A stretch of DNA of 64,000 bases from positions 42,267 to 106,266 of the forward strand of contig JAJEHI010000048.1 in the NCBI GenBank assembly GCA_022823775.1. The letters are read 5' to 3'. Under the pieces are notes generated by a model. It was given only the letters and a program-made list of their open reading frames with translations, made no database searches and was not told the DNA's origin. Every line of letters starts with the position of its first letter. Position 1 is the first letter of the stretch. Shown piece after piece: positions 4,359 to 64,000 of this stretch. Position numbers and translations under genes: made by a program. The stretch comes from Defluviicoccus sp. GTDB lineage: Bacteria; Pseudomonadota; Alphaproteobacteria; MPNO01.

Positions 4359-4406
4359 ATTTTATCTGCTATTTCAATACTCTATCCATCGCCCGCCACG
4401 ATATTG

Positions 4407-5132: not shown

Positions 5133-5145
5133 ATCCGCCCCCTCG

Positions 5146-6507: not shown

Positions 6508-6634
6508 CCGTCGTCTTCCTCCGCAGTGGCTCGGTCCGATGCTACGGCGCGAACGGGCGCGCGGAAACGATAAATTGCCGGCCCGTGGACGCGCTGTTAG
6601 CGTTCGCGCGGCGCGGCGGGGTGTGCGAGGTGGA

Positions 6635-46837: not shown

Positions 46838-48952
46838 TCAATAGTAGTAGCCGCCAACCAGCGCCGGGGCGGGTTCGTCCCGCTCTTCCGGAGACCCGCC
46901 GGTCCGGACCAGCCGGGCCGTGACGATCACCACCAGCTCGAGGTCCTCCGATCGTATCGAGCGATGCCCGAACAGCGGTCCCAGCAACGGGATGTCCTTG
47001 AACACCGGGAGGCCCGCCTCCCGCGTGTCGGACGCGTTGCGGAACAGCCCGCCTATCACGATCGAGTCTCCGTCGCCCACTTCGACCGTCGTCTCCGCGC
47101 GGCGCACGTTGATCACCGGGATATTGACGCCCACCACCTGGACCGCCTGGTTCAGCGACGGCTCCGACACTTCGGGCCTGACCTTCAGCACGATCCTGCC
47201 GGCGTCTATGACCGTGGGGACGAAGTCGAGCAGGACGCCGTATTTCTTGTATTCGAACAGGATGACCCCGTCCTCGAACCCGGTCGGCAGCGGGTATTCG
47301 CCACCCGAGAAGAACGACGCCGCCTCGCCCGACACGGCGGTGAGGTTGGGCCTGGCCAGCACGTTCGCCGAGCCGGCCCTGGCAAGCGCGTCGATCATGC
47401 CCGAGATGCGCGTGTCCTTCGTATGCCTGCCGAAGAAGAGACCGGGGGAGGGCTGACCGTCGACGAGTGACGGAGCGAAGGCGCCGATCGCGCTTCCCGC
47501 GACCGACGGGACGCTCGCCAGCCGGCCGATCCGGAAGCCGAACACGTTGTCGCCCGGGGTCCGGAATGCCTCCCAATTGATCCCGAGGTCCTCGCTGAGC
47601 GAGCGCTGGACCTCGGCGATCTGGACTTCAAGGCTCACCTGCTGCGCGCCGGCCACACGCAGTTCGGTTTCGACGACGGTGTCCTTCGGCAGAGCCGCCG
47701 CCGCGAGCCGGAGGGCGCGTTCGGCGAGAGCGGCGGAGGCGACATCGCCCGACAGCGCTATTCCCCGCGCGACCCGCCTCGCCCGTACGCCGCGCAGATC
47801 GGGCTCTCCGGCCAGGTTCGCACGAACGGGTTCGAGGTCGAGCATGACGGACACGATCCAGTCCCGCACCCGACCGTCCTCTCCGAGCACCGCGACGGAG
47901 GTTCTGCCGACGCTCTTGCCGACGATGTACAGCACGTCGGGCGATAGCAGCTGAACGTCCGCCACCTCGGGCGCCGCCACCAGCAGCGAGGTCGCGCTGG
48001 AATCGAGCCCGAGGCGCCTGCTCTGCCCCAGCGAAAGGGTCATCGTCGCCGGCAGGGGGACGCCCGGCGTTCGGTCCGCGGCCGCCTCCGCCTCCGGGAC
48101 CGGCGGCGCCTCCCGCTCCGTTCCGGGACCCTGCGGGGAGGGCCGTTCCGCAATGCGAAGCAGGGCGCCCGTGGACCCCGGCAGCGCCGCTTCGCGGGCC
48201 GCGGGGCCGTCCCCTTCCCGCGCCGGCAGACGCATCGCGAGGCTCGGATGGACCGCACGCGCCGCGGCCTGGCGCCGCCGCTCCCGCCGCGCTTCCTCGA
48301 TCAGATGCCACAGCGAAGAACCGTCCTCGCCCAGCCAGAAGGACGGATCGTGCCGCGCGTGAACCTCCGCCGCGCTCTCTTCCTTCCCGGCCGCCAGCAG
48401 CATGCGCACGAAATTCGCGGTGATCCCCGGATGGCCCGAAGACAGGCGGAGAGCCCGGCGGTATTCCGCCTCGGCCGTCTCGTAATCGCCTTCGAGGCTG
48501 GCGAGGACGCCGATGCCGTTGGCGACCCAGGCCGCCGAGGGCCCCCGTCCCGCCGATTCGCGCGCGCTCCCGAAGTGCCGCCGCGCGTCGTCCAGCGTGC
48601 CTTGGGCGAGCGCCGTCCGCCCCGCGCCGAGGAGCGCTTCCGCCTTGATGGCCGGCGCCTCCTCCGCCAGCGCCGCGGCCCCGAGGAAATAGTCCTTCGC
48701 GGCCGGCAGGTCGTTGTCGAGGGACGCGATATATGCCAGCCCGAGGAGCGGTTCGGGAGCCTCGTCGAAGCGTTCGGCCAGGGAGCGGTATAGCCTGCGG
48801 GCGACCGACGGCTGGCCCGCGGTAAAGGCGGCGGCCGCGACGGACAGGTTGTTTTCAAGAAGATCCTGGCGGCCGGCGGGATCGTCCGACGACGGGCCGG
48901 TCGCGCATGAGGCGACCGCCGCGACCGAGATGAAAACGGCAGCGGCGCGCAT
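46838..48952 (-). CDS. cpaC: CpaC/RcpA-type secretin fused to an N-terminal TadD-like TPR domain; lipoprotein signal
   Basis: Real start MRAAAVFISVAAVASC at 48952. The first ~270 aa are TPR-like. These are followed by the pilus-formation N-domain (LSLGQSRRLGLDSS...VLYIVGKSVGRTSV) and the secretin core (ARPNLTAVSGEAASFFSGGEYP...FKDIPLLGPLFG). Confidence 0.75.
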   Translation of the reverse strand: MRAAAVFISVAAVASCATGPSSDDPAGRQDLLENNLSVAAAAFTAGQPSVARRLYRSLAERFDEAPEPLLGLAYIASLDNDLPAAKDYFLGAAALAEEAPAIKAEALLGAGRTALAQGTLDDARRHFGSARESAGRGPSAAWVANGIGVLASLEGDYETAEAEYRRALRLSSGHPGITANFVRMLLAAGKEESAAEVHARHDPSFWLGEDGSSLWHLIEEARRERRRQAAARAVHPSLAMRLPAREGDGPAAREAALPGSTGALLRIAERPSPQGPGTEREAPPVPEAEAAADRTPGVPLPATMTLSLGQSRRLGLDSSATSLLVAAPEVADVQLLSPDVLYIVGKSVGRTSVAVLGEDGRVRDWIVSVMLDLEPVRANLAGEPDLRGVRARRVARGIALSGDVASAALAERALRLAAAALPKDTVVETELRVAGAQQVSLEVQIAEVQRSLSEDLGINWEAFRTPGDNVFGFRIGRLASVPSVAGSAIGAFAPSLVDGQPSPGLFFGRHTKDTRISGMIDALARAGSANVLARPNLTAVSGEAASFFSGGEYPLPTGFEDGVILFEYKKYGVLLDFVPTVIDAGRIVLKVRPEVSEPSLNQAVQVVGVNIPVINVRRAETTVEVGDGDSIVIGGLFRNASDTREAGLPVFKDIPLLGPLFGHRSIRSEDLELVVIVTARLVRTGGSPEERDEPAPALVGGYYY

Positions 48953-49254
48953 GCGCCGGACGAGATGTCGACATGGTTGCCGGATCACGAGCATTTCCAA
49001 TCCGGCCCCGTTGTCAGCGAACGAAGCACGACCGCTCCATCTTCCGTCAAGATTTCGAACCCGGGCGAAGAATGAACGCGGTTCCCGAATTCGATCCTAT
49101 CGATCCAGAGACCGCGAACCTGGGTGTATCCCCGCGATCCGGACGCTCGATCCGGCACCGCCGCAACCGGCGAACCCATAAGCGAACTTGGCAGAATATG
49201 CCTAACACGATATGAATTGTGAACAGAAGTGAGATATTTTGTCGCCCTCGCCCC

Positions 49255-49743
49255 ATGCGGAGGCGGCGTTGTTGCATCGCGCGGAAGGTTCTTTTCCGCG
49301 CGTCGTTTCGGAGACGATCCGTGTTCGAACCCGGGTGCCTGCGGCGGGGCATATTCGTCGCCGCGGCGTTTCTGCCGCTGTTGTTTTCGGCTGGATGCCA
49401 GCAACCCCTCGCCGTCCACGACCCGTATTTCAGGCCGGGCAACACGACTGCCGCTGCGCAAGGCGCCGAAGCGAGACGGGTCGTCAGATACCGCCGGGCG
49501 CTGCAGACCGCGCGGAGATCGTGTCCGACCGATGCGTCCGCCGAGGCCGGCACGCGGGACGGTCCGGTCCCGGCGGACAAGGCGGGCCGCGCGGCGCTCG
49601 CGGCGCTTTGCGCCGATTTGCGCGAGCCGTCCACGGCCGCGCATGGCGGGACCTCGAACGCCTATCGGCGGTGGGTGGAAGACAGGATCCGCGAGCTGCC
49701 GAAGGCGGCGGCGACCGGCGCCGGCGCCGCCGGCGGCTCATGA
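49255..49743 (+). CDS. Putative exported/lipoprotein (possibly a CpaD-like pilus assembly lipoprotein); start uncertain
   Basis: Signal-like segment GIFVAAAFLPLLFSAGCQQ. GC3 is very high in this frame; two other overlapping frames are also open (49229.., 49239..) and are judged spurious. Confidence 0.4.
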   Translation: MRRRRCCIARKVLFRASFRRRSVFEPGCLRRGIFVAAAFLPLLFSAGCQQPLAVHDPYFRPGNTTAAAQGAEARRVVRYRRALQTARRSCPTDASAEAGTRDGPVPADKAGRAALAALCADLREPSTAAHGGTSNAYRRWVEDRIRELPKAAATGAGAAGGS

Positions 49744-49788: not shown

Positions 49789-50919
49789 ATGGCGGCGTCT
49801 TCCAAGGCTCACTATGCGCGCGGGTTCGCGGCCGACGCCCGGACCGAGCGGGCATTGCGCGCCGGACTTGCCGGCCGCGACGCGAAGGTCCAGCGAGGAC
49901 GCCTGGAAATCGCGCTCCGCACTCTGGCGGCCGAGCCCGCCTCCAGTCTGGTGTTCGTCGACCTCGACGGCAATTCGGACCCGGAAACCGCGGCCAGGCG
50001 ACTGACCGAAGTTTGCCCTTTCGAGACTGCGGTGGTCGCGATCGGTTCCACCGATTCGGCGCGGTTCGGCCACGCGCTCCTGCAACAGGGGATGGCGGAC
50101 TATCTGGTCAAGCCGCTGTCGGCCGCGGTCGTGCGCGAGGCGGTCGCCGCCCTCAGCGGGGAGGCGCCCGAGCATCTCTACGCGGGAGACGTCATCGCTT
50201 TCGCGGGAAGCCCCGGCAGCGGCGTCTCCACCCTGGTCGCCGCGGTCGCGCACGCCGCCGCCGCCGACGGCCGCACCGCTTCCGTCGTCGACCTCGACCC
50301 GGTTTGCGGCAAGCTCTCCGCGCGGCTCGGCGTCGAACCCGGGGACGGCCTGCGCCCGCTCCTTGCTTCGATCGGCGCCGGCGCGGCCGATGACCCGGAC
50401 CCTCATATCGACCCCGACAGGATCGACCGAATATCGACGCCGGCGGCTTCCGGCATTTCGCTGATCGCTTACCCGAAGGCCGAGGCGCCGCCGGAAAGCG
50501 CCGACGCGGCGGCGCTCTCCGCCCTCTTCAGGCATCTCGCCAACCGGACCCATCTCGTGCTGGCGACCGGGATGCCGGATCCCGAGACGCAGCTTCTGCT
50601 GATGCGGGACGCCGATGCTCGGGTTCTGGTCTACGAACCGACGATAGCGAGCGTCGGCGCCGTGGTGCGTCGGTTGGCGCGGCTCGGCCCCGACCGGCCC
50701 GCCACGCTGGTCCAGTGCTCCACGCGGGGTCGCCGTTACACGCTGTCCTCCGCCCATGTCCGCTACGCGTTCGGCGACCGGCGCCCGGACGTCGTGCTTC
50801 CCTTCGATCCGGCGCTCCACGCGGCCGCCACCGGCAAGCCATCGGGCCGCCCGGGAAAGGCCTACCGCAAGGCGCTGCGCCAGGCGATAGAGCTGGTCGG
50901 ACAAGATCATCGTTCGTGA
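49789..50919 (+). CDS. cpaE: CpaE/TadZ-family pilus assembly protein (receiver-like N-domain + MinD/ParA-like domain), paralogue 1
   Basis: The receiver-like part is LVFVDLDG...ADYLVKPL. The deviant Walker A, IAFAGSPGSGVSTLVAA, lacks the conserved lysines. Confidence 0.7.
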   Translation: MAASSKAHYARGFAADARTERALRAGLAGRDAKVQRGRLEIALRTLAAEPASSLVFVDLDGNSDPETAARRLTEVCPFETAVVAIGSTDSARFGHALLQQGMADYLVKPLSAAVVREAVAALSGEAPEHLYAGDVIAFAGSPGSGVSTLVAAVAHAAAADGRTASVVDLDPVCGKLSARLGVEPGDGLRPLLASIGAGAADDPDPHIDPDRIDRISTPAASGISLIAYPKAEAPPESADAAALSALFRHLANRTHLVLATGMPDPETQLLLMRDADARVLVYEPTIASVGAVVRRLARLGPDRPATLVQCSTRGRRYTLSSAHVRYAFGDRRPDVVLPFDPALHAAATGKPSGRPGKAYRKALRQAIELVGQDHRS

Positions 50920-51265
50920 CCGCGAAGGCCGCATTTCACGCGTCGGGAAGAGTCGGAACTCCGATTTTCCCGGTCTTGGGAGCGGGCATTGCGCGTCGTG
51001 CGTCAATCCGCCGCAACGGCGGTCGTAGACGGGAGTCGGCGGTCGGGCAAAGATAAGCTCCATTAACGGTTTAGGCGGGGTGAGGGCGGTTTCGCTTATC
51101 GCCCTCCAGCTTGCGGCGAACCGTCCCGACGCGCCGATTTCGCGCTCCGCAACGCAAAATATCGTTGACGCTTTTCGCCCCGGCGAATAGATGACCGCAC
51201 CGATATGGCGGCATGACCCGGATGAGATCGATATCGATCCGCGCGGGGGCCGCTGCATCGTCCGC

Positions 51266-51291
51266 CGGCCGGACAAGCCCGTCCGGCCGGG
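51266..51291. promoter_or_regulatory. Perfect 10-bp-arm hairpin CCGGCCGGAC-aagccc-GTCCGGCCGG, 15 bp upstream of tadE-like gene
   Basis: Seen directly. It lies in the 388-bp intergenic region, where a candidate -35/-10 (TTGACG-N17-TAGATG at ~51166) is also present. Confidence 0.3.
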
Positions 51292-51306
51292 CTTGATCGC
51301 AATTCG

Positions 51307-51849
51307 ATGCGGAGCGGGTGCGTGAACCGGATCGTCAGACATGGCTGGCTTGCAGCGCGGGACTTCTGGCGCGCCCGGCGCGCGGCGGTCGCGCTGGAAA
51401 CGGCGATCGCGGTGCCGGTTCTCCTCTTCGCGTTCGCGGGCCTGATGGAAATCGTGCACTCGGCCTATGTCAGCGACAACATGAACCGCGCCGCCCGCGC
51501 CGCCGCCCGAGCGATCGCGATCGCGCCGGACAGCGCGGCGGGTAGCGGCGCGCTCGACAGCGTCGCCTGCACGGCGATCCGGCGCGAACTCAAGCTGGTC
51601 GAGAGTTTCGACTGCGGCGCGAGCTGGACGCTCACGGTCGACACGGATCTCACTCCCGCCGCCTTGCTGGCCGGCGGAGACGGGGGCGACGGCGAGGCGG
51701 ACGGGGACATGGTGGTCGTGCGGATCGCCTGGAGCCGGGAGCCCTGGGAGATCGGCCAGCTCATCGCCTCGCTCGACGAGGGAGACGGCGAGCCCGACCG
51801 CCGGATCGCGGTCGGCGTCGCCCGCCGGGAACCGGTGGCGGGGAGCTGA
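51307..51849 (+). CDS. tadE: TadE/TadF-like pseudopilin-type protein
   Basis: The N-terminal TadE motif is AAVALETAIAVPVLLFAFAGLMEI; 180 aa. Confidence 0.65.
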   Translation: MRSGCVNRIVRHGWLAARDFWRARRAAVALETAIAVPVLLFAFAGLMEIVHSAYVSDNMNRAARAAARAIAIAPDSAAGSGALDSVACTAIRRELKLVESFDCGASWTLTVDTDLTPAALLAGGDGGDGEADGDMVVVRIAWSREPWEIGQLIASLDEGDGEPDRRIAVGVARREPVAGS

Positions 51850-51856
51850 TCCGCCC

Positions 51857-52528
51857 GTGACCGCGCTCCCGTCCCTCCCGCTCCGGTCCTTCGTCCGCGA
51901 CACGCGCGCCCTGGCCGGTATCGAGCTCGCGTTCGGATCCGTGGCGCTCGCGACGATCGCCACGCTGTGCTTCGACCTCTACTCGCTGGTCGGCGTCACC
52001 AGCGCCAGCGCGCGTAGCGCCGTCGCCATGGCGGAGTACGTTTCGCGCGACAGCGCCCCGGACGGGGATCAGGTGACGGCGCTGGGCCGGTTCCTGCACC
52101 GGGAGGAGTTCGGCGCCCCCGCCGATCTGGTCTACGTGATCTCCGCCGTCCGGCGTCCGCCGGGGGACGAGCCCGCGGAAGTCCTGTGGGTCGACGACAC
52201 GATCCGGTTCGGCGACTCCGCGACGACGGCGGCCCTCGCCGGCGAGTGCGCCCGCCGCGGCAGCGCGGGCTGGCGGGCCGGGCTGCTTGGCGCGCCGGGC
52301 TCCCTCGGCATGAGCGAGGGGGAGGTGGCGATCGTGGCCGAGGTCTGCGCGCGTCCCATGCGCGAGGGCATGCTTTCCGGCCGCCTGGTCACCGGAGACA
52401 TCTACCGCGTTCATATCCTGCCGTCCCGCGATCCCCGGCAGGCGCCAGAGCCGCCAGTCCATTCGACCTCGGCGGAGGACACGGACAGGACGGGCGCCGG
52501 TCCGCCGCACAAGGTTTCGATTTCATGA
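51857..52528 (+). CDS. tadF: TadE/TadF-like protein (second copy)
   Basis: GTG start; N-terminal LAGIELAFGSVALATIATLCFDLYS; 223 aa. Confidence 0.6.
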   Translation: MTALPSLPLRSFVRDTRALAGIELAFGSVALATIATLCFDLYSLVGVTSASARSAVAMAEYVSRDSAPDGDQVTALGRFLHREEFGAPADLVYVISAVRRPPGDEPAEVLWVDDTIRFGDSATTAALAGECARRGSAGWRAGLLGAPGSLGMSEGEVAIVAEVCARPMREGMLSGRLVTGDIYRVHILPSRDPRQAPEPPVHSTSAEDTDRTGAGPPHKVSIS

Positions 52529-52682
52529 TCGCCGGGGCCGACGGCAACGGCGATTCCGCTCACGATCGATAACGCAACGGGAGAACCGAGACATCGAGTA
52601 GACCGACCAGATAGTTGCCGATGCAACCAAGCCGGCACGGTGCGCCGGCGACCGTTTTTACCGACCCAGAAGGGATTCCAAA

Positions 52683-52922
52683 ATGAATACTCGATTTGCA
52701 ACCCGCCTGTTCAGGCGCTTCGCGCGCGACAACAAGGCCGTCTCCGCCCTCGAATACGCCATCCTGGTGGGTGTCATCACCGCCGGCGTCGGCGCAGCCG
52801 TCGCGGCGTTCACGGACCAGATCGACGACATGATCGATCAAATCGCCACCAACGTGACCGCCAACGAGGCCAACATCGGCACCGGTGGCGCCGGCGGTGG
52901 CGGCGGCGACGCCGCCGAGTGA
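52683..52922 (+). CDS. flp: Flp/Fap-family type IVb pilin
   Basis: 79 aa. The Flp motif ...DNKAVSALEYAILVGVITAGVGAAV has G/A before the EY; the C-terminus is a Gly-rich acidic tail TGGAGGGGGDAAE. Confidence 0.75.
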   Translation: MNTRFATRLFRRFARDNKAVSALEYAILVGVITAGVGAAVAAFTDQIDDMIDQIATNVTANEANIGTGGAGGGGGDAAE

Positions 52923-53110
52923 TCGATACCGCCTGGAGCGCCGGTCGCCGTGCCCTCGGGGCGGCGGCCGGCGCGGCTGTCCCGCTACCGTAACGGACAT
53001 GGCCGCCCCCGGCTCCGGGCGGCCGTTTCCGGCATCCGGCGGGCCTGACCGCGGGTCCTCCGGATTTTCGGGGCCGCGGCCGAACCGGTTCCTTTCCGAA
53101 AAAGCCCACA

Positions 53111-54612
53111 ATGACTCTCGACGCTTCTCCGAACGGCCGCGATCGTCCGGCCGGGCCTCCCCCGGAACGCGCGCCCGACTTCGACCTCGATTTCGACGTC
53201 GATTTCGAGGCCCTGCTGCGGGCCGGGCTTCCGGACGATCCGGGCGAGGGCGAGGACGCCACCGCCGCCGACCTGGCGAGCGCTCTCTCCGCCGGCCCCT
53301 TGGACGATCCATCTCCGCCGCCGGCCGATCCGGACCTGCCCGACCTCGCGGACCTTTCCGGCATCGCGGCGGACCTGCCGGGTCCGGGCGCCGCGATCGA
53401 CGCCGGCAGCGATGAGGACGCGGACGACACGGCTTCCGAGTCGACGCCCGAAGGTCCCGCCGCCGCGCTCGCCTTCGCGGCCGATGCGGAGACCGAGAAC
53501 GCCCTGCGCGAGGGTCTGATGCATTTCGAAGGGGCGATGCCGGACTGCGACGATCCCCAGGTTTGGCCGGGCGGCCTGCGAGCGGCCGTCGCGGCGCTCG
53601 CCGACGGGCATTCCTCCGGTCTCGTCATCGTCGATATCGACGGTATCGCCTACCCGTCGGGCGCCATTCACGAGCTTGCCGAGGTCTGCGAGATCGGAAC
53701 CGTCGTCATCGCGGTCGGCTCGAACGGCACCGCCCGTTTCAGCCGCGAAATATTGCTTGCCGGGGTCAGCGACTATCTGGTGAAGCCGCTCACCCCGCAG
53801 ACGGTGAGGGAGGCGACACGCCGCGCGGCCGCGTCCCGGGCGGACGCCCCCGCGAGGGGATGCGTCGCCGGGTTCGCCGGCACCGGCGGCAGCGGCGCGA
53901 CCACCCTGGCGGTGGCGACCGCGCTCCATGCGGCGGAGACCGGCCGTTACGTTTCTGTGCTCGATCTGAACCGGACCGTCCCCGTCGCGGCGCTTCTGCT
54001 CGACGTGCAGCCGGCGGCCGGGCTGGAACAGGTCATCGAGGTCGCCGGCGACGCGCCGCTCGAGGCAAACACGCTGGACGGCGTCCGGGCGCAGCGCTCC
54101 GAGCGGGTATCGATCTACGCCTATCGCTGGTCTCCCGTGCTGCCCCCGGCGCCGTCGGGCCCGGCGCTCGCCCGCCTGCTGGGCGAACTGAAGAGCCGGT
54201 CCCAGCTCGTGCTCGTCGACGGGATCGACGATCCGCCGACCCAATTCGCCCTGCTGTCCGAGGTCGATGTCCCCGTTCTGGTGGCGGAACCGACGGCGGA
54301 CGGCGCAACCCGCGCGGCCCGTATGCTGGAGCTTCTCCCCGGCGACGCCCCGGCCGTCGCGGTGAAGAACCACACGCGCGCGTTCCGGCCGGACGCGGGG
54401 GCGCGGGCGCTCGTCGACGCCGGGATGGAGGCCGCGCCGGACATCCTGGTTCTGTACCTTCCGTCGCTGCCGGAAATCGCCGACCGGGGCTGGCCGCGCG
54501 GCAGGCTTCCCCGCCGCTTGCGCAAGCCCGTCGCGAGCCTTCTCGAACGGATCCTCGCATCGGCCCGCCTCGCCCGTGTCGTCCCGGACGGGCGCCTCGC
54601 GGAGGCGGCGTG

Positions 54613-54613
<1 letters not shown>
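53111..54613 (+). CDS. cpaE: CpaE/TadZ-family protein, paralogue 2, with a ~140-aa acidic/Pro-rich N-terminal extension
   Basis: The receiver-like region is LVIVDIDG...SDYLVKPL. The MinD-like domain has the Walker A-like GFAGTGGSGATTLAVA, again without lysine. Confidence 0.7.
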
Positions 54614-56006
<1,393 letters not shown>

Positions 56007-56010
<4 letters not shown>

Positions 56011-56966
56011 CGCACTTCCTGATCGTCGTGGGCACGGCCCTGGTGGCGACGCTGCCCGGGGTCGCCTTCCTGCTGCTGCTGTGGAACCGCGACCGGCGGT
56101 TGCGCGGCCGGCTTCAGGGCGCGTCCGCTTCGCATATCGACGAGGCGGTCTCCGAGGACGATGCGACCGAGGCCATCGTCTTTCGCTCCTCGGCCGGATC
56201 GCGGTCGGCTCGCCTCCGGCGCGCGATCGAGAGCCGGTATCCCCTGCTCGACGCCCGGCGGGCGGTTCCGCGCGCGGTTCTCGCGGGCGGCGCGGCGGCG
56301 GCCGGCCTGTGGGTTTCGATGTGGTTCCTGAAGATCCCCTCCGGCTGGTGGACGATGCCCCTCGTCGGGTTGGGCGGCGTGGGCGGCATCTGGTACGCGC
56401 TGTCGTGGTTTCACTCGCGGCAGGCGACCGAGTTCACCCGCCAGTTCCCCGAAGTCATCGACCAGATCGTGCGGCTATCCGCGGCGGGGCTGCCCGCGCT
56501 TGAGGCGATCCCTGTCGCCGCCGAAGACGCCCGGGCGCCCGTCAAGCCGGTGCTGAACGCCGTCTGCGACGGGCTTAGCGGCGGGCTCGATCCCGACACC
56601 GCTCTTCGAACTGTCGCCACCCGCGTCCGCCTCGCGGACTTCACCTTGTTCGCCGCGGTGATACTGCTGCAGCGCCGCGCCGGCGGCGGTATCTCCGCCG
56701 CGTTCGCCACCCTCTCCCGCACGCTTCGCGATCGTCGCAACACCGCGCTGAAGGCGCAGACATCCACCGCGCAGACCCGCCTGACCCTTATGGTGCTGTC
56801 CGTGATGCCGGTGGTGATGCTCAGCATCCAGAAGTTCATCTCGCCCCAATCCGCCGCGATCCTCTTCGAGACCGAACGGGGGACGACCCTCCTGCATTGG
56901 GGCGTCGGCCTGATCGTCGCCGGCCTTCTGGTCGCGAAGGCTATCGCTTCGCGCGTCGAGCAATAG
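56007..56966 (+). CDS. tadB: TadB (T2SS-F-domain inner-membrane platform protein)
   Basis: GTG start overlapping the cpaF stop (GTGA); 319 aa with a T2SSF domain. Confidence 0.8.
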
Positions 56967-56983: not shown

Positions 56984-57955
56984 ATGCAGAACGCCTTCAT
57001 ACCGGTCGCCGGACTCGTCCTGGGCGCCGCCTACGTGCTGCTTCTCGCGCCGCTGATTATCCGGGAAACGCGGCGGGCGCAGCAAATGGACAGGCGGTTG
57101 ACCGCGTTGCGCGATTCCCCGTTCGGCTACGCCGCCGGACACGCGGCCCGCGACGGCGGCCGGGGCAAGGCCCTGATCAGGGCGCTCGGCCTGACGGCCA
57201 TGCGTGTGGCGTCGATGCTGGTCCCGATCGGCGCGGCCGAGCGCGAGAAACTCACCCGCATGCTCCGCGCGGGCGGCTTCGGGCAGCACGAAGCGCTCTC
57301 CGTTTTCCTCTCCGCGAAGCTCGGCGGCGCGTTCCTCCTCGCCATCGGCGCCGGGCTCTGGGCGACCTCTTCGGAGACGGTCGGACAGCACGCGTTTCTC
57401 GCCCTGTTCGCCGCGCTGGCGGGCTTCGTGATCGGCGGTGTCATCCCGGAATACGTGCTGCGTGCGCTGGTGGCCCGAAGGCTGCAACGGATGACCGCGG
57501 TCCTGCCCGACGCGCTGGACATGCTGGTGATGTGCCTCGAATCCGGCCTGACGGCGGAACGGGGAATCCTGACGGTCGCCGACACGCTGGCGCCCATCGA
57601 GCCCAATCTCGCCAGGGAGTTCCAGCAGATCGAGGCGGAGCTGCGGGTCGCGTCGGACCGCCGCGCGGCGCTCACCGAGTATTACCGGCGCACGGAGATC
57701 GACGGTCTGCGCGACCTCGTGATGGCGCTCATACAGGGCGACCGGTACGGCACCCCGCTGTCCCAGTCGATGAAGAACATCGCGGCCGACGAACGGATGC
57801 AAAAGGCGGCGCGCATCGCGACCCAGGCCGAGCGCCTGCCGGTCCTGATGACCCTGCCGATGATCATTCTCGTGGTTCCCGGAACCATGCTCCTGGTGGC
57901 GGGCCCCGCCGTTCTGGGCGCGCTTACCGGGCTGGCAAAAATGAGTGGCGGATAG
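56984..57955 (+). CDS. tadC: TadC (T2SS-F-domain inner-membrane platform protein)
   Basis: Start MQNAFIPVAGLVLGAAYVLL; 323 aa with a T2SSF domain. Confidence 0.8.
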   Translation: MQNAFIPVAGLVLGAAYVLLLAPLIIRETRRAQQMDRRLTALRDSPFGYAAGHAARDGGRGKALIRALGLTAMRVASMLVPIGAAEREKLTRMLRAGGFGQHEALSVFLSAKLGGAFLLAIGAGLWATSSETVGQHAFLALFAALAGFVIGGVIPEYVLRALVARRLQRMTAVLPDALDMLVMCLESGLTAERGILTVADTLAPIEPNLAREFQQIEAELRVASDRRAALTEYYRRTEIDGLRDLVMALIQGDRYGTPLSQSMKNIAADERMQKAARIATQAERLPVLMTLPMIILVVPGTMLLVAGPAVLGALTGLAKMSGG

Positions 57956-57956
57956 G

Positions 57957-58943
57957 ATGTACAAGACGCGCGGTCGCTCTTCCGCCGGACGGGCGGTTTC
58001 CCTGCTTGCCACTTTGGCCGCGGGCCTCACGTGGCTCGCCTGCGGCGATCTCCGCGCCGAGGAGCCGATCCTGCCGATCCCCGAAAATGTCGACGTCGAT
58101 CCGGCCAAGGTCGAGCTGGGCCGAAAGCTGTTCCACGACCCGATATTGTCGAAGGACGGCACGATCTCCTGCGCTAGCTGCCACGATCTGGCGGGCGGCG
58201 GCGATGACGGCCGCAAGATTTCGCTCGGCGTCGACGACAAGCCGGGAATGGTCAACTCGCCCACCGTGTTCAACGCGGGCATGAACTTCAAGCAGTTCTG
58301 GGACGGCCGCGCGAGCACGCTCGAGCATCAGATCGACGGTCCGGTGCAAACCGCCTTCGAGATGGGCAGTCTCTGGCCGGACGTCGTCGCCAAGCTCTAC
58401 CGCGACGGCGCCTATCCCAAGCTCTTCAAGAAGAGCTATCCCGACGGGATCAATCGCAAGAACGTCAAAAACGTCATCGCCGAGTTCGTAAGGTCCCTCA
58501 ACACTCCCAACAGCCGCTTCGACCGGTGGCTGAAAGGCGACAAGAACGCTCTCAACGCGCAGGAAAAGCGCGGCTACGCATTGTTCAAGGACTATGGCTG
58601 CTCGTCGTGCCACCAGGGCGCGAACGTCGGCGGGAACATGTTCCAGGTGTTCGGCGTCCTGAACGACTACTTCAAGAAACGCGGCAACATCACGGAAGCC
58701 GATCTGGGCCGCTACAACATCACCGGAAACGAAGAAGACCGGCACGCCTTCAAGGTTCCCAGCCTGCGGATGGCGGCGATGACGGCACCCTATCTGCATG
58801 ACGGAAACGCGGCCACGCTCCGCGACGCCGTCGACGCGATGTTCGAATTTCAACTGGGGCGCGAAGCCCCCGACAAGGACAAGGAAGCCATCGTGGCGTT
58901 CATCGAGACGCTGGTGGGCGAATCCAAGGAGCTATCGAAATGA
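57957..58943 (+). CDS. ccpA: Di-haem cytochrome c peroxidase (CcpA/MauG family), periplasmic
   Basis: Two CxxCH haem motifs (CASCHD, CSSCHQG), a signal peptide, and the conserved FKVPSLRMAAMTAPYLHDG. The track begins at a GTG at 57945; the ATG at 57957 is preferred. Confidence 0.85.
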   Translation: MYKTRGRSSAGRAVSLLATLAAGLTWLACGDLRAEEPILPIPENVDVDPAKVELGRKLFHDPILSKDGTISCASCHDLAGGGDDGRKISLGVDDKPGMVNSPTVFNAGMNFKQFWDGRASTLEHQIDGPVQTAFEMGSLWPDVVAKLYRDGAYPKLFKKSYPDGINRKNVKNVIAEFVRSLNTPNSRFDRWLKGDKNALNAQEKRGYALFKDYGCSSCHQGANVGGNMFQVFGVLNDYFKKRGNITEADLGRYNITGNEEDRHAFKVPSLRMAAMTAPYLHDGNAATLRDAVDAMFEFQLGREAPDKDKEAIVAFIETLVGESKELSK

Positions 58944-60733
58944 GGTCTGGCGCAGTCATTCTCGGCATTGCCGTCTCCGCCGTCCTGCTGGCCGTCGCGG
59001 GCGGTCTTTATGTGCTGGCGGGCAATAACAGCGGAGACGGTTATCGCAAGGCGATCGATCTCGTGCGGCAGATCCAGCTGCTGTCGTCGGAATGGAGCAT
59101 GGAAGTCACGCGCGTGAAATCCGATCAGTTCGCCGATTTCGACTCGCTGGCCGCCTTCCTGCCGCGCATGGCGCGGCTGAAGGACGAGCTTGCCGACACG
59201 GCCCAGCGCATCCCCCAACTTCCCGACCGGATCGCCAGCGACATGCAGGCCTATCTCAACGCGATCGAAGCGAAGGAAGAGCGCATAGAACGCTTCAAGA
59301 CGGGCTACGCCGTGGTGCGCAACTCCAACCGCTACCTGCCGCTGGCCGCGACCAACGTCCTGCAGCAGGCGCAGAACTCGAGGGACGACGCGCTGGTCCG
59401 GAATATTTCGAGCCTGATCCGGGATGTGAACCTCTATCTCGCCACGCCGACGGACACGTCCCAGTCCCGGCTGACCGCCGAGATCAAGAAGCTCCGCGAA
59501 TCCAGCGTCTCCTATCCGCCTCCGCTCGCCAACGCGCTGGCCAATCTGTTCTCCCACGCCGAGGTGCTTGTGGCCAAGCAGGGGCCGACGGAGGAGCTGT
59601 TCAAGAGGGCCACGTCCGGCGAAGTCTCCGACCTGACGGAGCAGCTGAGCAGCAATCTGCAGTTCGAGCTCGGCAAGAAGGTGCTCCTCGCGACCTATTA
59701 CGACCGGGGCATTCTCGTGGTGTTCGCCGCGCTGATCCTGTTCTGGATCCTGCTCGCGCTGCAGCAGCGGATTCGCGGCGGCTCCGCCGTGACCCGGGTC
59801 GCTTCCCGCCCCTCGGCGATCGAGATCGCACCCGCGCCCGCCGGCGCCGGGGAGGCCGTCGTCGCGGCGGAGGAGACGCATCCGGCGCCGGTGCGGCCCG
59901 CGCCCGTCGAGGCGGAAGCCATCCGTCTGCCCGACGAACCCGAATCCCTGCCCGTCGCGGCGGCGGCTTCGTCCCCGGAACCGAGCGCCGAATCCATCCT
60001 GATGCAAGGGTTCGTCGTCAAATGCGTGGCCGGAATCATGGCCGCCTCGGCCGACGAAATCGCCGGCCGCATGGAGTATCTGCGCCGAACCCAGAACAGG
60101 ATCCAGGACGCCTTCCGAAACAGCGACGGTATCGCGGAAACGTCCGATGGAACGGATGTCGACGAAGAGATCGAAACGATCTCCGCCATCGCGCTGAGCG
60201 TCCGCCAGAGGATGAACGGCATCGCCGATCTCGCGAAGCGGCTCGACTCCTATTCCAACGGTCACGCCAACGGGGCGGACCGCGGAATGATCGACCTCAA
60301 CGCCTGTGTCGAGAACGTCATCGAGACCGCCGGTGCCGCGAACCGGGCGACGGTCGTGAGGAACCTGGGCGACATCCCGGAGATATTCGCCTCCAGGACC
60401 GAATTTCAGCTGCTCCTGTCGGAACTGATCGACAACTCGATGGTCGCGGTCGAGGGACTCGACGACAGAAAGGGCATCATCAAGATCGATACCGCGCGGA
60501 AGAACGACGAAATCCTGATCACCGTCATCGACAATGGCGACGGTATCGCCCCCGACAAGCGCGCGAACATCTTCAAGCCGTTCTACACGTCCCGCGACGG
60601 GGCGATGGGCATCGGCCTGACCCTCGCCGGTCACCTGGTCAAGAAATACGAGGGGGTCATCAAGATCAATTCGTTGCCCGGCCAGGGGACGGTGGCGCGC
60701 GTCACGCTGCCGGCCGGCGTGTCGGGGGCGTAG
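58940..60733 (+). CDS. Membrane sensor histidine-kinase-like protein (two TM helices, periplasmic domain, C-terminal HATPase_c); no canonical H-box recognised
   Basis: N-box LLLSELIDNSMVA, G1 DNGDGI, F FKPFYT, G2 GMGIGL. TM1 AVILGIAVSAVLLAVAGGLYV and TM2 ILVVFAALILFWILLAL. The ATG overlaps the ccp stop. Confidence 0.65.
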   Translation: MRSGAVILGIAVSAVLLAVAGGLYVLAGNNSGDGYRKAIDLVRQIQLLSSEWSMEVTRVKSDQFADFDSLAAFLPRMARLKDELADTAQRIPQLPDRIASDMQAYLNAIEAKEERIERFKTGYAVVRNSNRYLPLAATNVLQQAQNSRDDALVRNISSLIRDVNLYLATPTDTSQSRLTAEIKKLRESSVSYPPPLANALANLFSHAEVLVAKQGPTEELFKRATSGEVSDLTEQLSSNLQFELGKKVLLATYYDRGILVVFAALILFWILLALQQRIRGGSAVTRVASRPSAIEIAPAPAGAGEAVVAAEETHPAPVRPAPVEAEAIRLPDEPESLPVAAAASSPEPSAESILMQGFVVKCVAGIMAASADEIAGRMEYLRRTQNRIQDAFRNSDGIAETSDGTDVDEEIETISAIALSVRQRMNGIADLAKRLDSYSNGHANGADRGMIDLNACVENVIETAGAANRATVVRNLGDIPEIFASRTEFQLLLSELIDNSMVAVEGLDDRKGIIKIDTARKNDEILITVIDNGDGIAPDKRANIFKPFYTSRDGAMGIGLTLAGHLVKKYEGVIKINSLPGQGTVARVTLPAGVSGA

Positions 60734-60857
60734 CGAGACCGGAAGCGGGCGGGGAGCGGGATCGCCCCGACCCGTCGATAGACGCGTTACCAGCAACCTT
60801 TCAGCGAGTCGGAACCATGGAAAACCGTTACGACAACCCAATCCCGAGGGCGTTTCG

Positions 60858-62177
60858 ATGACTTCGCGGGGAGATCGAAACAGCAGCCTGCGGATGCAGC
60901 TGGTGTCCAACGCGCTCCTGAGCGTCGCGCTGCCGATCCTGATCGTCGGCGGATTGACCTTCTTTCTGCTCGCGTATCATCTCGACATCATCGAGACGAG
61001 CTTCGCGCGGAGCCGGGATGCGGTAACCAACGACATCGCGCGGACCGACCTCGTGTCGCGGGCGACAACCACCGCGAGCCAGATCGATACTTTCCTGGTC
61101 AGCCGTATCACCGAAGCCAAGGCCTGGGCGACGTCGAAGGCCGTCGTCGAGGCCGCCCGGTCGGCCGGCGCCAGGCACGCGGCCGAGGGGTTCGTCAAGA
61201 CCCCCGCCGCCGAGGTCGAAAGGAGATTCCGCATCGAAAAGAGCCTGGGCCTCTGGCCGGAAGCCGATTCCTTCCTGCGCCAGCAGGTCGCGGCGTCGCC
61301 TTACTTCGCGGAACTCTTCTTTACCGACAGCAACGGTTTCAACGTCGCGCTCACCAACCCCACCAGCGATTTCATCCAGTCCGACGAGGAATGGTGGAAG
61401 CGAGCCTGGAGCCAGGGGATTTCCGTGGGCGAGGTCGAGTACGACGACTCCGCCGGGGTCTGGTCCGTGGAAATCTCGGTCCGGATAGACAACCCGACCG
61501 GGAAAAAGGCGCTCGGCGTCATGAAGACGGTGCTCGCCATCGAGCCCATTCAGAACATCGCCGACAGGGCGGCCCAGTCCGTTCCGGGCGGCCGCGTCCA
61601 GGTCGCGACGGGGCGCGGCGCGCTGATCGCCGAGACGGCCTCCGGCCACGCCCGGGAACGAATTATGAATGGCGAAGTCAACGTGCAGGAACAGGGCGAA
61701 CCGTCGGTGCGGGCCGGTTTCGGCGGTGAACAGACGGGGTTCGCCACCGACCGGGAATGGCTCACGGGGTACGCCCGGACCGGCGGCCGCGAGACCTATG
61801 CTTCCGCCGTCGGCCGGTTCGCGGGTTTCGACTGGATCGTGATCGTCCAGAAACCGATCGCCGCCATCCACGAGCCGATCACGGCGCTTCGCGGTATCGA
61901 GGACGCGCTGCGCGATTGGCGCCTCATTCTCGCGCTGGCCCTGGGCGGCATGGCGTTGCTGAGTTCGGTGCTGGCGATTTCCCTCGCCGTCGGGGCCGCC
62001 CGGCGTTACGCGAACGCCCTGGGCGCGGTCACCGAGATGGCCGAACGTTCGGCCCGGGGCGAACGGGTCAGTCCCGCGGTCATCCGCAACCCCCAGGAGA
62101 TCGTTCGCGTGAACGACGCCGTCCATCGCCTGGTTCAGGTGTTCGCCGGCGTCCGGGAGCGACCGCGAGCGACGTAG
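60858..62177 (+). CDS. Cache-domain sensor with two TM helices and a C-terminal HAMP domain, lacking any output domain
   Basis: TM1 LLSVALPILIVGGLTFFLLA, a ~300-aa periplasmic Cache-like region, TM2 LILALALGGMALLSSVLAISLAV, then HAMP-like NALGAVTEMAERSARGERVSPAVIRNPQEIVRVNDAVHRLVQVF, followed by the stop. Confidence 0.6.
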   Translation: MTSRGDRNSSLRMQLVSNALLSVALPILIVGGLTFFLLAYHLDIIETSFARSRDAVTNDIARTDLVSRATTTASQIDTFLVSRITEAKAWATSKAVVEAARSAGARHAAEGFVKTPAAEVERRFRIEKSLGLWPEADSFLRQQVAASPYFAELFFTDSNGFNVALTNPTSDFIQSDEEWWKRAWSQGISVGEVEYDDSAGVWSVEISVRIDNPTGKKALGVMKTVLAIEPIQNIADRAAQSVPGGRVQVATGRGALIAETASGHARERIMNGEVNVQEQGEPSVRAGFGGEQTGFATDREWLTGYARTGGRETYASAVGRFAGFDWIVIVQKPIAAIHEPITALRGIEDALRDWRLILALALGGMALLSSVLAISLAVGAARRYANALGAVTEMAERSARGERVSPAVIRNPQEIVRVNDAVHRLVQVFAGVRERPRAT

Positions 62178-62262: not shown

Positions 62263-62745
62263 GTGGAGAGCCGTTCGATGGCGAACGCAACCGCATGGAT
62301 CGTCTGGCTGGCGGGGTGGGCCGCATGCGGCCTGTTCGTCGCCGCCGCGGTCAGCGACCTTCGGACCCGCCAGGTGTCGAACGCGATACCCCTGCTGCTG
62401 CTCGGGCTTTTCGCGGTGTACGCGGCGGCCGGCGCGGTCCGGCCCGCAACGTCGCTCTGGCAGCATCTGGCGATAGGCGCCGTACTGCTCGCCGCCGGTT
62501 TCGCGCTCTACACGACCGGTCGCTTCGGCGGGGCCGATGCGAAGCTGATCGCCGTGGCGGGGTTGTGGGCCGGTCCGAACGACCTGGCGGCGTTCCTGTT
62601 CGTTCTGGGCGGGTGCGCTTTGTTGCTGAGCCTGTATGCCTTGCTGCCTCACGCGGGGGCGCGGCGTCTGCGGTCGGAACTTCCCTTCGCCCTGGCGATC
62701 GCGCCGCCGAGCCTGGCGGTCATCGTCCCGCGCGCGCTGCCATGA
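62263..62745 (+). CDS. cpaA: Prepilin peptidase CpaA/TadV (A24 family)
   Basis: 160 aa polytopic membrane protein; the catalytic Asp contexts are AAVSDLRTRQVSN and GGADAKL. Confidence 0.75.
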   Translation: MESRSMANATAWIVWLAGWAACGLFVAAAVSDLRTRQVSNAIPLLLLGLFAVYAAAGAVRPATSLWQHLAIGAVLLAAGFALYTTGRFGGADAKLIAVAGLWAGPNDLAAFLFVLGGCALLLSLYALLPHAGARRLRSELPFALAIAPPSLAVIVPRALP

Positions 62746-62783: not shown

Positions 62784-64000
62784 ATGCAAAGATACCGTAC
62801 GGTTATCGTCCTGCTTCTCCTGGTGGCCGTGCCGCTTGCCGCGGCGGTGGTCGCGGCGCGCTTCTTCATGCCCGGAACCGGTGCCGAGCCGGGTCGGGCG
62901 GAAGCGAAGCAGGTGGCTCCCGGCCCCGCCGAGAAGCCGAAGATGCGCAAGATCTTCGTGGCCGCCCGCAGGCTTCCGGTGGGCACGCTGTTGACCGATG
63001 ACGATCTGACGACGCTCGATCTGCCGGAAAATGAGATCAGGCGCGCCCATCTCGCGATGGACGGCCCGAAGGCGGTCGACGGGCTGCGCGGCCACGCGGT
63101 GCGCGAGCCCGTCGCCGCGGGTGCGCCGCTCGTCCGGTCGGCGGTCGTCGGACCGGGCCAGCGGGGCTTCCTCGCGGCCGTTCTCAAGCCCGGCACGCGC
63201 GCGGTGACGATCCGGCTCGGAAAGGGGGCGAGACATGCCGGCCTGATCGATCCGGGCGATCGGGTGGACGTGATTCTCACCGCCAAGCTGCGGCTCGAAG
63301 GTCGGGTGCAGACGGTGTTCGCGCGGACCATCCTGGAGGACGTGCGCGTCGTCGCCGTCGACCGCCAAGTCGGGGCGAGCACCGAAACGCCCGAGGGCGG
63401 CAAGCGGGTCAAGCGGACCGAAATCCTCACCGCGACGCTGGAGGTCTCGCCGGCCCAGGCGGATCGTCTGGCGCTGGGCGAACACGAGGGCGAGCTCTCG
63501 CTCGCGGTGCGCTCCCTCATCGGTGCCGTGGAGCGGGTGCGAAACGAAGCGGTGGACCTCCAGGAGCTGTTGTCCCTGACCAAGGAGGCGCCGCCCTCCT
63601 CCGAGCCGGCCGCGCCCGCCCCGCCGCCGCCGATCGTCGAGGAGCCCGCGACACGGGCGGTTCTCGCGGCGGCCCGGGCGCTGCCCGTGGGGACGCTTCT
63701 CACGGGCGAGGACTTCGCCGAAATCGAGATCGCGGCGGAAGACGTCCGGCGCGAGCATGTCGTCGCGGCCGACGGCGCGGCGATCGAATCGTTGCGCGGA
63801 TATGCCGTCCGCGAGCCGGTCGGTGCCGGAGCGGCTCTCACCTGGTCCTCCGTCGTCGGACCCGGTCAGAGAGGCTTTCTCGCGGCCGTTCTCGATCCCG
63901 GCACCCGCGCGGTGACGATCCAGCTCGGAAAAGGAACGAGGCATGCCGGCCTGATCGATCCGGGCGATCGCGTGGACGTGATCCTGACCGCGAAGCTGGC
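62784..64000 (+). CDS. cpaB: CpaB/RcpC Flp-pilus assembly protein, 3'-truncated by window edge, containing an internal tandem duplication of the SAF-RcpC module
   Basis: Manual translation of frame 0 from the ATG at 62784 gives MQRYRTVIVLLLLVAVPLAAAVVAARFF..., with the block KIFVAARRLPVGTLLT...VVGPGQRGFLAAVLKPGTRAVTIRLGKGARHAGLIDPGDRVDVILTAKL occurring twice. It is not in the ORF track because there is no stop in the window. Confidence 0.75.
   Translation, partial: MQRYRTVIVLLLLVAVPLAAAVVAARFFMPGTGAEPGRAEAKQVAPGPAEKPKMRKIFVAARRLPVGTLLTDDDLTTLDLPENEIRRAHLAMDGPKAVDGLRGHAVREPVAAGAPLVRSAVVGPGQRGFLAAVLKPGTRAVTIRLGKGARHAGLIDPGDRVDVILTAKLRLEGRVQTVFARTILEDVRVVAVDRQVGASTETPEGGKRVKRTEILTATLEVSPAQADRLALGEHEGELSLAVRSLIGAVERVRNEAVDLQELLSLTKEAPPSSEPAAPAPPPPIVEEPATRAVLAAARALPVGTLLTGEDFAEIEIAAEDVRREHVVAADGAAIESLRGYAVREPVGAGAALTWSSVVGPGQRGFLAAVLDPGTRAVTIQLGKGTRHAGLIDPGDRVDVILTAKL
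63060..64000 (+). repeat. Intragenic tandem duplication, period 708 bp (236 codons), within cpaB; last ~150 bp of each copy about 85-90% identical at the nucleotide level
   Basis: Seen directly: gtcgtcggaccgggccagcggggcttcctcgcggccgttctcaagcccggcacgcgcgcggtgacgatccggctcggaaagggggcgagacatgccggcctgatcgatccgggcgatcgggtggacgtgattctcaccgccaagctg at ~63144 against a near-identical run at ~63852. Confidence 0.7.

Follow-up and report, generated by a model that had tools for sequence, protein, structure and literature searches.

Two TadZ/CpaE paralogues without basic P-loop residues in a Tad pilus locus of Defluviicoccus sp.

Two cpaE-like genes in one Tad pilus locus

We analysed a stretch of 64,000 nucleotides from Defluviicoccus sp. 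(contig JAJEHI010000048.1; referred to below as the window, G+C content about 70%) for two genes, here designated E1 (49789-50919) and E2 (53111-54613). A complete Tad (Flp, type IVc) pilus locus surrounds both, with a VWA-like gene and a TPR-containing secretin gene on the minus strand and a run of genes from a lipoprotein to an RcpC/CpaB-like gene on the plus strand (Table 1). E1 and E2 are real genes of this locus and encode TadZ/CpaE paralogues in which a receiver-like domain precedes a MinD-like domain. Their G+C contents at third codon positions (GC3) of 0.83 and 0.86, respectively, show the codon-position pattern of real genes, and the two proteins share 35% identity over 334 residues (E = 2e-43). 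A tblastn search for a third, canonical cpaE within the window returned E1 and E2 only. A protein identical to E2 (P0121) is public on the ENA metagenome scaffold ERZ23491513, scaffold_122, of 170,641 bp, and the genes called on this scaffold agree with the open reading frames of the window in order and length.

The domain architecture had been proposed in the original prediction and was borne out by sequence and structure comparisons. In a PDB sequence search, the N-terminal domains matched the N-terminal domains of Caulobacter CpaE (4n0p) and Sinorhizobium CpaE2 (4myr) with E-values of 6e-7 to 4e-9, and the corresponding part of the AlphaFold2 (AF2) model of E1 superimposed on the same two structures with TM-scores of 0.74-0.84. 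The C-terminal domain of this model matched MinD (1g3q) and TadZ (3fkq). For the E1 and E2 models together, fold matches comprised 3fkq, MinD and 4myr, and ParA and McdA were also among them. By sequence, the C-terminal domains gave weak matches only, to MinD and to the NCBIfam model TIGR03815 (CpaE_hom_Actino). The latter was the best NCBIfam match, and with 41.1 bits for E1 and 26.4 bits for E2 neither protein passed its cut-off of 154.45. In Pfam no family scored above threshold for E1 and no match whatever was obtained for E2. E1 and E2, like nearly all members of their two protein families, are unnamed or termed 'hypothetical', and cluster look-ups gave no protein names.

Assignment to TadZ/CpaE thus draws on locus context, architecture and phylogenetic placement, all of which agree with it, while the K/R Walker-A-like motif is missing and every curated model threshold was failed. 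As to context, the E2 stop codon overlaps the cpaF start, and E1 follows secretin and lipoprotein genes in the manner of CpaE in the order CpaC-CpaD-CpaE. Two further features were considered and set aside as evidence. The C-terminus of each protein is basic and, judged by its hydrophobic moment, amphipathic, which is indecisive with regard to a membrane-targeting helix. In the region considered for an adenine-binding Asn, E2 reads VQNHTR and E1 VQC..R, and the MinD register is ambiguous there, so we make no claim about it.

The P-loops of E1 and E2 lack both basic residues

Each protein has a single glycine-rich loop of this kind, GSPGSGVSTL in E1 (residues 140-149) and GTGGSGATTL in E2 (residues 257-266). 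HMMER aligned the E2 segment faGTGGSGATT without gaps to vSGKGGTGKTT of Pyrococcus horikoshii MinD (1ion), and a profile of the ATPase-like domain matched P. furiosus MinD over 214 positions (E = 1.3e-6) in the identical P-loop register. Because the alignment to GKGGTGKTT of MinD is ungapped, the signature lysine position is taken by S141 in E1 and T258 in E2 and the catalytic lysine position by V146 and A262, respectively. The switch I D-x-D of MinD corresponds to D168-L-D170 in E1 and D285-L-N287 in E2, and the Walker B aspartate to T260 in E1 and D370 in E2. The claim that both P-loops are devoid of lysine was therefore upheld, and it extends to arginine, which is absent from both positions as well. 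E2 contains four lysines in total, a low number that we attribute to the preference of high-GC genomes for arginine; arginine is nevertheless missing from the P-loops of both proteins.

The original prediction would have fallen had an intact Walker A motif been located elsewhere in the sequences. A regular-expression scan of both proteins found no classical [AG]x4GK[ST], no deviant KGGxGK[ST] and no TadZ-type [KRH]GGxGx[ST] motif anywhere, and a true lysine-bearing Walker A at another site was discarded on these grounds. An alignment artefact was also rejected: MAFFT and hmmalign open a gap or insertion of one residue opposite the canonical Arg and HMMER, run directly against MinD and ArsA, opens none; no basic residue falls at the position either way. 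By their sequences, E1 and E2 are not members of the strict MinD/ParA deviant Walker A ATPases.

MinD/ParA, the yardstick originally applied, is not the right one. Both of its lysines are indeed absent, but TadZ/CpaE proteins never carry the catalytic lysine, so that only the loss of the signature K, R or H is unusual. The TadZ/CpaE Walker-A-like consensus has been given as K/RGGxGxS/T, without the catalytic lysine (bioRxiv 10.64898/2026.07.08.737194), and the Liberibacter form is KGGVGSS, where the signature residue may be K, R or H (PMC8513845). ATP-dependent homodimerisation is expected to be mediated by the signature lysine, which would reach across to the ATP bound by the other subunit (PMC8513845). 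Eubacterium rectale TadZ (ErTadZ) still binds ATP for its dimerisation (PMC13170226, citing Xu 2012). All of the 48 canonical single-copy CpaEs that we recovered carry G[AT][RH]GG[VA]GA[ST]T together with a Walker B of the form hhhhDhPR.

The altered loops are family traits. We compared 121 sequences each of the E1 and E2 families, and K, R or H occurred at the signature position in none of either. The nine P-loop columns of the E1 family hold G in 121 sequences, S/T/A in 94/18/6, A/P in 78/36, G in 121, S in 119, G in 121, T/V/A/I/K/R in 85/17/11/4/2/2, S in 114 and T in 114. Those of the E2 family hold G in 120, T/S/A/P in 92/14/5/4, G in 121, G in 121, S in 118, G in 121, A/T in 62/55, T in 120 and T in 121. 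Downstream of the loop the families differ. E1 proteins retain D-L-D in switch I, and their Walker B column consists mostly of Thr or Ala (T in 87, A in 20, S in 7, R in 4, M in 2 and G in 1) with Asp in none. In the E2 family the Walker B Asp is present in 121/121, and switch I reads D (121), L (121), N/D/S (92/11/11) and R (121). A few E1 relatives (P0056, P0081 and P0014) have K or R at the catalytic position, within GSAGSGKST or GSAGSGRST; the Lys of GSAGSGKST restores a classical GxxxxGK[ST] Walker A, and the Walker B position is still Thr in these proteins.

E1 and E2 form sister families beside canonical CpaE

In a neighbour-joining tree over 366 shared columns, 31 E1, 13 E2 and 48 canonical sequences fell into three clean clades. 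E1 and E2 were sisters, and their joint clade was the sister of the 48 canonical CpaEs, which stem from single-copy loci. By this tree E1 and E2 are sister paralogues, a single duplication suffices for the pair, and the basic P-loop residue would most simply have been lost before that duplication. A profile search against 1.84 billion representatives gave 367 matches at E <= 1e-30. The first approximately 95 were of the E1/E2 type, canonical proteins with R-GG-V-G came next, and a few canonical-like sequences appear to have lost the basic residue independently. Among the 150 top-ranking representatives at 50% identity, about 95 belong to the E1/E2 clade. Loci of this type are found in uncultured Alpha- and Gammaproteobacteria of marine type. 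The 31 close loci that we compared all come from metagenome-assembled genomes, assigned to Thalassobaculaceae, Defluviicoccus, Rhodospirillales and unclassified Alpha- and Gammaproteobacteria, with one Immundisolibacterales and one binned as Bryobacterales. A literature search returned no account of two tadZ genes per locus, nor of TadZ proteins without the signature residue.

The presence of two copies could simply mean that one of them is redundant or in decay and has no separate function. Duplicates within a locus often decay, and the loss of catalytic residues has gone further in E1 than in E2. Both reading frames are intact with gene-like GC3, however, and each family comprises 120 or more homologue clusters (90% identity), the most distant of which are about 55% identical to the window protein; 34-47 columns per family are invariant. 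Moreover, each copy has a fixed genomic partner (see below) and the AF2 folds are confident for both. This reading is disfavoured, and we consider it highly improbable.

Each copy keeps its own half of the locus

The canonical gene order is secretin, CpaD, CpaE, CpaF, TadB and TadC. The canonical loci in our comparison (L032-L080) contain secretin, a single CpaE, CpaF, TadB and TadC. In the variant locus, pseudopilin and pilin genes are placed between the two CpaE copies, such that E1 keeps the secretin-lipoprotein (outer-membrane) module as neighbour and E2 the CpaF-TadB-TadC motor module. The lipoprotein gene precedes E1 in 31/31 close loci, and the secretin gene lies near E1 in all but two, where the contig ends. 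E2 is followed by CpaF-TadB-TadC in all ten loci that extend far enough, usually with the peroxidase and kinase genes next. Judging by the stop/start overlap ATGA with cpaF, E2 is translationally coupled to the motor module. The spacing between the E1 and E2 modules is variable and amounts to 5-10 kb in several loci.

E2 carries an acidic, proline-rich N-terminal arm

E2 had been predicted to bear about 140 extra N-terminal residues rich in Asp, Glu and Pro. The composition was confirmed (26% D/E, 16% P, 3% K/R, net charge -26), whereas the length had been overestimated and is approximately 110-117 residues. The start codon is backed by a conserved N-terminal MT[LFY][DNS]AS in homologues. In the AF2 model, the predicted local distance difference test score (pLDDT) is below 50 across most of residues 1-110. 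Extensions in the E2 family are always acidic and proline-rich, and their length ranges from 0 to 491 residues in the close set (median 264) and up to about 1,390 residues in distant representatives. Many contain one to five copies of an amphipathic motif, D[FL]ExAL[LI]xGL, which occurs 177 times compared with 0.35 expected in shuffled extensions; E2 of the window has a single degenerate copy. In the canonical CpaEs examined, the leader measures about 20 residues and lacks this motif; the acidic arm is a trait of the E2 family.

Some E2-type proteins (P0247-P0255, P0260) reach 1,000-1,770 residues because their acidic extensions comprise about 650-1,390 residues (approximately 20% D/E and 5% K/R). 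The D[FL]ExAL[LI]xGL repeats of the closer relatives are absent from such proteins.

Further genes of the locus

The coordinates of all features are collected in Table 1. For the small lipoprotein upstream of E1, Pfam and NCBIfam scans gave no match. The gene caller of the public scaffold placed an open reading frame of 219 residues on the opposite strand at 48985-49644, overlapping the lipoprotein frame. This call is probably wrong, because the plus-strand frame is the conserved one: it is kept in 32 loci versus 18 for the minus-strand frame, with higher scores and a GC3 of 0.83 (in its 3' part) versus 0.64. The product of the VWA-like gene may be a TadG/CpaL-like tip protein. The RcpC/CpaB-like gene that starts at 62784 encodes a full product of 586 residues according to the gene table of the public scaffold.

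Table 1. Features of the Tad pilus locus in the window, with landmarks within E1 and E2
Feature	Position	Strand	Evidence and remarks
VWA-like protein, 540 residues	45027..46649	-	Pfam VWA_2 and VWA matches below cut-offs; gene called on public scaffold; downstream of secretin
Tad secretin, RcpA/CpaC-like, N-terminal TPR repeats	46838..49000	-	Pfam Secretin 2.6e-40, T2SS-T3SS_pil_N 3e-16, TPR; divergent from E1; syntenic in related loci
Small lipoprotein, lipobox LLFSAGC	49219..49743	+	Directly upstream of E1, the CpaD position of canonical loci; start codon uncertain
E1, TadZ/CpaE paralogue, 376 residues	49789..50919	+	Receiver-like, about residues 9-122; MinD-like, about residues 131-376
E1 P-loop GSPGSGVST, residues 140-148	50206..50232	+	S141 at signature-lysine position; V146 at catalytic-lysine position
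E1 Walker B position A259-T260-G261	50563..50571	+	Thr in place of aspartate; aligned to MinD ILIDCP
TadE-like pseudopilin	51322..51849	+	Pfam TadE 7.3e-6; gene call on public scaffold
Second pseudopilin-like protein, TadF position	51857..52528	+	Syntenic in related loci; no match in Pfam or NCBIfam
Flp-type pilin, 79 residues, motif KAVSALEYAILVG	52683..52922	+	Pfam Flp_Fap 1.6e-4, below cut-off; conserved across related loci
E2, TadZ/CpaE paralogue, 500 residues	53111..54613	+	Stop overlaps cpaF start (ATGA)
E2 acidic, proline-rich N-terminal extension, residues 1-117	53111..53461	+	Predicted disordered except for a short helix, residues 32-38 (DFEALLRAGL)
E2 receiver-like domain	53462..53845	+	About residues 118-245
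E2 P-loop GTGGSGATT, residues 257-265	53879..53905	+	T258 at signature-lysine position; A262 at catalytic-lysine position
E2 switch I D285-L286-N287-R288	53963..53974	+	Arg288 invariant and specific to E2 family; DLDL in canonical CpaE
E2 Walker B aspartate D370	54218..54220	+	D in 121/121; aligns with MinD Walker B Asp
CpaF/TadA motor ATPase	54613..56010	+	Intact Walker A GGTGAGKTT; Pfam T2SSE 2.3e-60; TIGR03819 1.5e-95
TadB-like platform protein	56007..56966	+	Pfam T2SSF 8e-17; gene call on public scaffold
TadC-like platform protein	56984..57955	+	Pfam T2SSF 1.4e-15; gene call on public scaffold
Di-haem cytochrome c peroxidase/MauG-like	57957..58943	+	Pfam CCP_MauG 1.7e-56; begins directly after tadC; syntenic in at least 9 related loci
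DAHL-domain histidine kinase	58940..60733	+	Pfam DAHL 5.6e-29, HATPase_c 3.3e-19; start overlaps peroxidase stop; syntenic in related loci
dCache-like protein	60858..62177	+	Pfam dCache_1 1.1e-6, below cut-off
Prepilin peptidase, TadV/CpaA-like	62278..62745	+	Pfam Peptidase_A24 7.6e-15; gene call on public scaffold
RcpC/CpaB-like gene start, doubled SAF-RcpC architecture	62784..64000	+	Runs past window end; gene call and Pfam families on public scaffold

The Flp pilins of the clade (window gene 52683-52922 and L001-L031) share the motif [KRE]-A-V-S-A-L-E-Y-A-[IL]-L-V-G. The usual residue at the -1 cleavage position of Flp prepilins is Gly. Counted back from the conserved Glu-Tyr, this position is mostly Ala in the clade, with Gly in a few sequences (e.g. 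L026 and L031).

In six loci (L011, L012, L014, L016, L019 and L029; about positions 600-9250 in each), the lipoprotein-E1 pair is preceded by giant secretin genes with open frames of 2,200-2,880 residues. In their products a unit of about 64 residues, which matches residues ~385-449 of the window secretin (46838-49000), is repeated in tandem approximately 18-31 times. The unit is the domain between T2SS-T3SS_pil_N and Secretin, of which the window secretin has one copy. No TadE, Flp, E2 or CpaF gene is found within 10 kb after E1 in these loci.

Receiver-like domains and signalling genes

The peroxidase, DAHL kinase and dCache-like genes (57957-62177) sit between tadC and the prepilin peptidase gene, and the first two follow TadC in at least nine related loci. 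No response regulator gene was found in the locus in the annotation of the window and of the public scaffold. It could be proposed on this basis that E1 and E2 are regulatory switches for pilus assembly, with the receiver-like domains or the P-loops answering a signal of the locus, for instance phosphotransfer from the orphan DAHL histidine kinase of the operon or another phosphorylated ligand. The overlap or abutment of the peroxidase and kinase genes with tadC would fit, as would the lack of a response regulator gene. Both receiver-like domains also retain one conserved Asp after each of strands 1 and 3, along with the strand-5 Lys-Pro. The same residues are present in many canonical single-copy CpaEs, however (a sample partly picked via the DYLVKP motif), so that they are no distinguishing mark of E1 and E2, and a phosphorylatable receiver domain special to these proteins was rejected. 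Furthermore, the first acidic residue of the usual strand-1 pair is Ala, and Gly-Ser replaces Thr-Ala. TadZ receiver domains have been described as atypical (PMC13170226), which likewise speaks against a switch. In an alignment to CheY, the Thr/Ser position is off by one residue, another point to its disadvantage. Taken together, we regard a signal-answering role as quite unlikely.

Possible functions of E1 and E2

Given the loss of every basic P-loop residue and the separation of the two copies, we tentatively favour an explanation in which E1 and E2 split the jobs of one CpaE, E1 being nucleotide-free and E2 having a ligand site that does not cycle, with dimerisation that proceeds without the lysine bridge and with the acidic arm as a tether. 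Caulobacter CpaE, six dimers of which surround the CpaF hexamer in a published model, is needed for secretin localisation (PMC13170226). The duplicates would divide these two jobs, E1 taking secretin positioning and E2 the dimer ring around the CpaF hexamer. E1 would serve the secretin-pilotin side and would most likely be a nucleotide-free pseudo-ATPase scaffold. E2, whose Mg/phosphate ligand set is complete save for the lysines (Walker B Asp, P-loop glycines and Mg-ligand Thr), would most likely keep a bound nucleotide or phosphate, in a structural role or with slow exchange, and undergo no hydrolysis cycle. In canonical TadZ, the signature residue forms a bridge to ATP in the other subunit. 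Its loss from both proteins suggests that dimerisation may no longer occur via the usual ATP sandwich; the dimer may be an E1:E2 heterodimer. Through its acidic disordered arm, which contains a short amphipathic helix motif, E2 probably links the motor to a basic partner or a polar landmark.

The original prediction had assigned both proteins a nucleotide-independent scaffolding role. For E1 this is plausible from its sequence, since the Walker B Asp is lost as well. It is not established for E2, in which the Mg/phosphate ligands named above are still present. A more far-reaching proposal is that an obligate, nucleotide-free E1:E2 heterodimer replaces the ATP-sandwich homodimer of TadZ in the CpaF ring, with E1 anchoring the secretin-pilotin side, the E2 arm and its repeated D[FL]ExAL[LI]xGL helices acting as partner peptide or recruitment hub and the operon kinase possibly setting activity. 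We think this unlikely. If it were true, it would be natural proof that TadZ scaffolding is fully separable from ATP.

Several observations weigh against the explanation that we favour. The proposed division of labour between E1 and E2 is read from gene linkage, and in about 12 loci there is no E2 within 10 kb of E1. Among all windows of nine residues, the P-loop ranks in the top 2.5% for conservation in E1 and in the top 3.2% in E2; a conserved P-loop together with the switch I Asp fits phosphate or nucleotide binding as well as a structural role. In 4/121 E1 relatives the loop contains GSGKST or GSGRST and hence a basic residue in the catalytic place. A family-specific basic residue lies beside switch I and could compensate for the missing ones: R288 is invariant in E2, and K175 of E1 is K or R in 108/121. 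Finally, lysines are known to relocate in related proteins. The missing P-loop lysine of ErTadZ is replaced by a lysine of the adjacent helix (PMC10482377), and K151 of McdA makes up for its missing Walker A signature lysine (PMC8684754).

These points lead to the alternative that E1 and E2 are still ordinary ATP-binding TadZ dimers and that the lysine-free loop reflects rewiring and not loss of function. Candidate substitute charges would be Arg288 of E2, Lys/Arg175 of E1, or R313 of E1 and R423 of E2, which are invariant in both families. The loop is one of the best conserved segments, with hardly any variation in its glycines or in its Ser/Thr Mg ligand. In addition, the switch I Asp is kept in E1 and E2, the Walker B Asp is invariant in E2, and the basic residues beside switch I stand where canonical CpaE has Leu or Thr. 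The relocated lysines of ErTadZ and McdA provide precedents, and the few E1 relatives with GSGKST could be read in the same way. On the other hand, the Walker B Asp is missing family-wide in E1, and no canonical TadZ is known that lacks both basic positions. Conventional ATP binding is thus a possibility to be taken seriously, if one on the unlikely side, and we retain the division of labour with a nucleotide-free E1 and a non-cycling E2 as the tentative explanation.

TadZ/CpaE is among the less understood Tad components; it reportedly binds ATP, dimerises, rings CpaF and helps to localise the secretin. E1 and E2 offer a natural test of the need for ATP in this protein. In their clade all basic P-loop residues have been removed from a loop that is otherwise near invariant, and the protein has been split into a secretin-linked and a motor-linked copy. 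The pair may hence provide separation-of-function variants ready to hand, with which to address the role of the nucleotide in TadZ and the assignment of TadZ surfaces to partners. E1 and E2 also define a distinct, unannotated type of Tad locus. We expect that they would moderately surprise a specialist.

Comparison with known systems

The closest known relatives are the TadZ/CpaE proteins, among them TadZ of E. rectale (3FKQ) and Aggregatibacter actinomycetemcomitans and CpaE of Caulobacter crescentus. Like E1 and E2, these combine an atypical receiver domain with a MinD/ParA-like domain, are encoded in a tad locus beside the motor ATPase gene and lack the catalytic Walker A lysine; the E1/E2 clade is the sister of canonical alphaproteobacterial CpaE. 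The differences lie in the signature position, where K/R/H has given way to S/T, and in the number of copies, two paralogues per locus instead of one. E1 further departs from canonical CpaE by the loss of the Walker B Asp, hhhhDhPR having become VLVTGxxDP, and E2 by the long acidic disordered N-terminus that distinguishes it from the canonical copies examined.

MinD (P. furiosus 1G3Q/1G3R and P. horikoshii 1ION) has the deviant Walker A KGGxGK[ST], both lysines of which are absent from E1 and E2. Unlike MinD, E1 and E2 possess an additional N-terminal receiver-like domain, and their pilus locus contains neither MinC nor MinE. In McdA-type ParA proteins the catalytic lysine is kept, the signature lysine K151 is supplied from the C-terminal half and the ATPase is very active, whereas E1 and E2 are also devoid of the catalytic lysine. 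The TadZA fusion of Bdellovibrio (bioRxiv 10.64898/2026.07.08.737194) is likewise a lineage-specific remodelling of TadZ that is physically tied to the motor ATPase. There, TadZ is fused to TadA and K/RGGxGxS/T is kept, while in E1 and E2 the protein is duplicated, unfused and has lost the basic residue.

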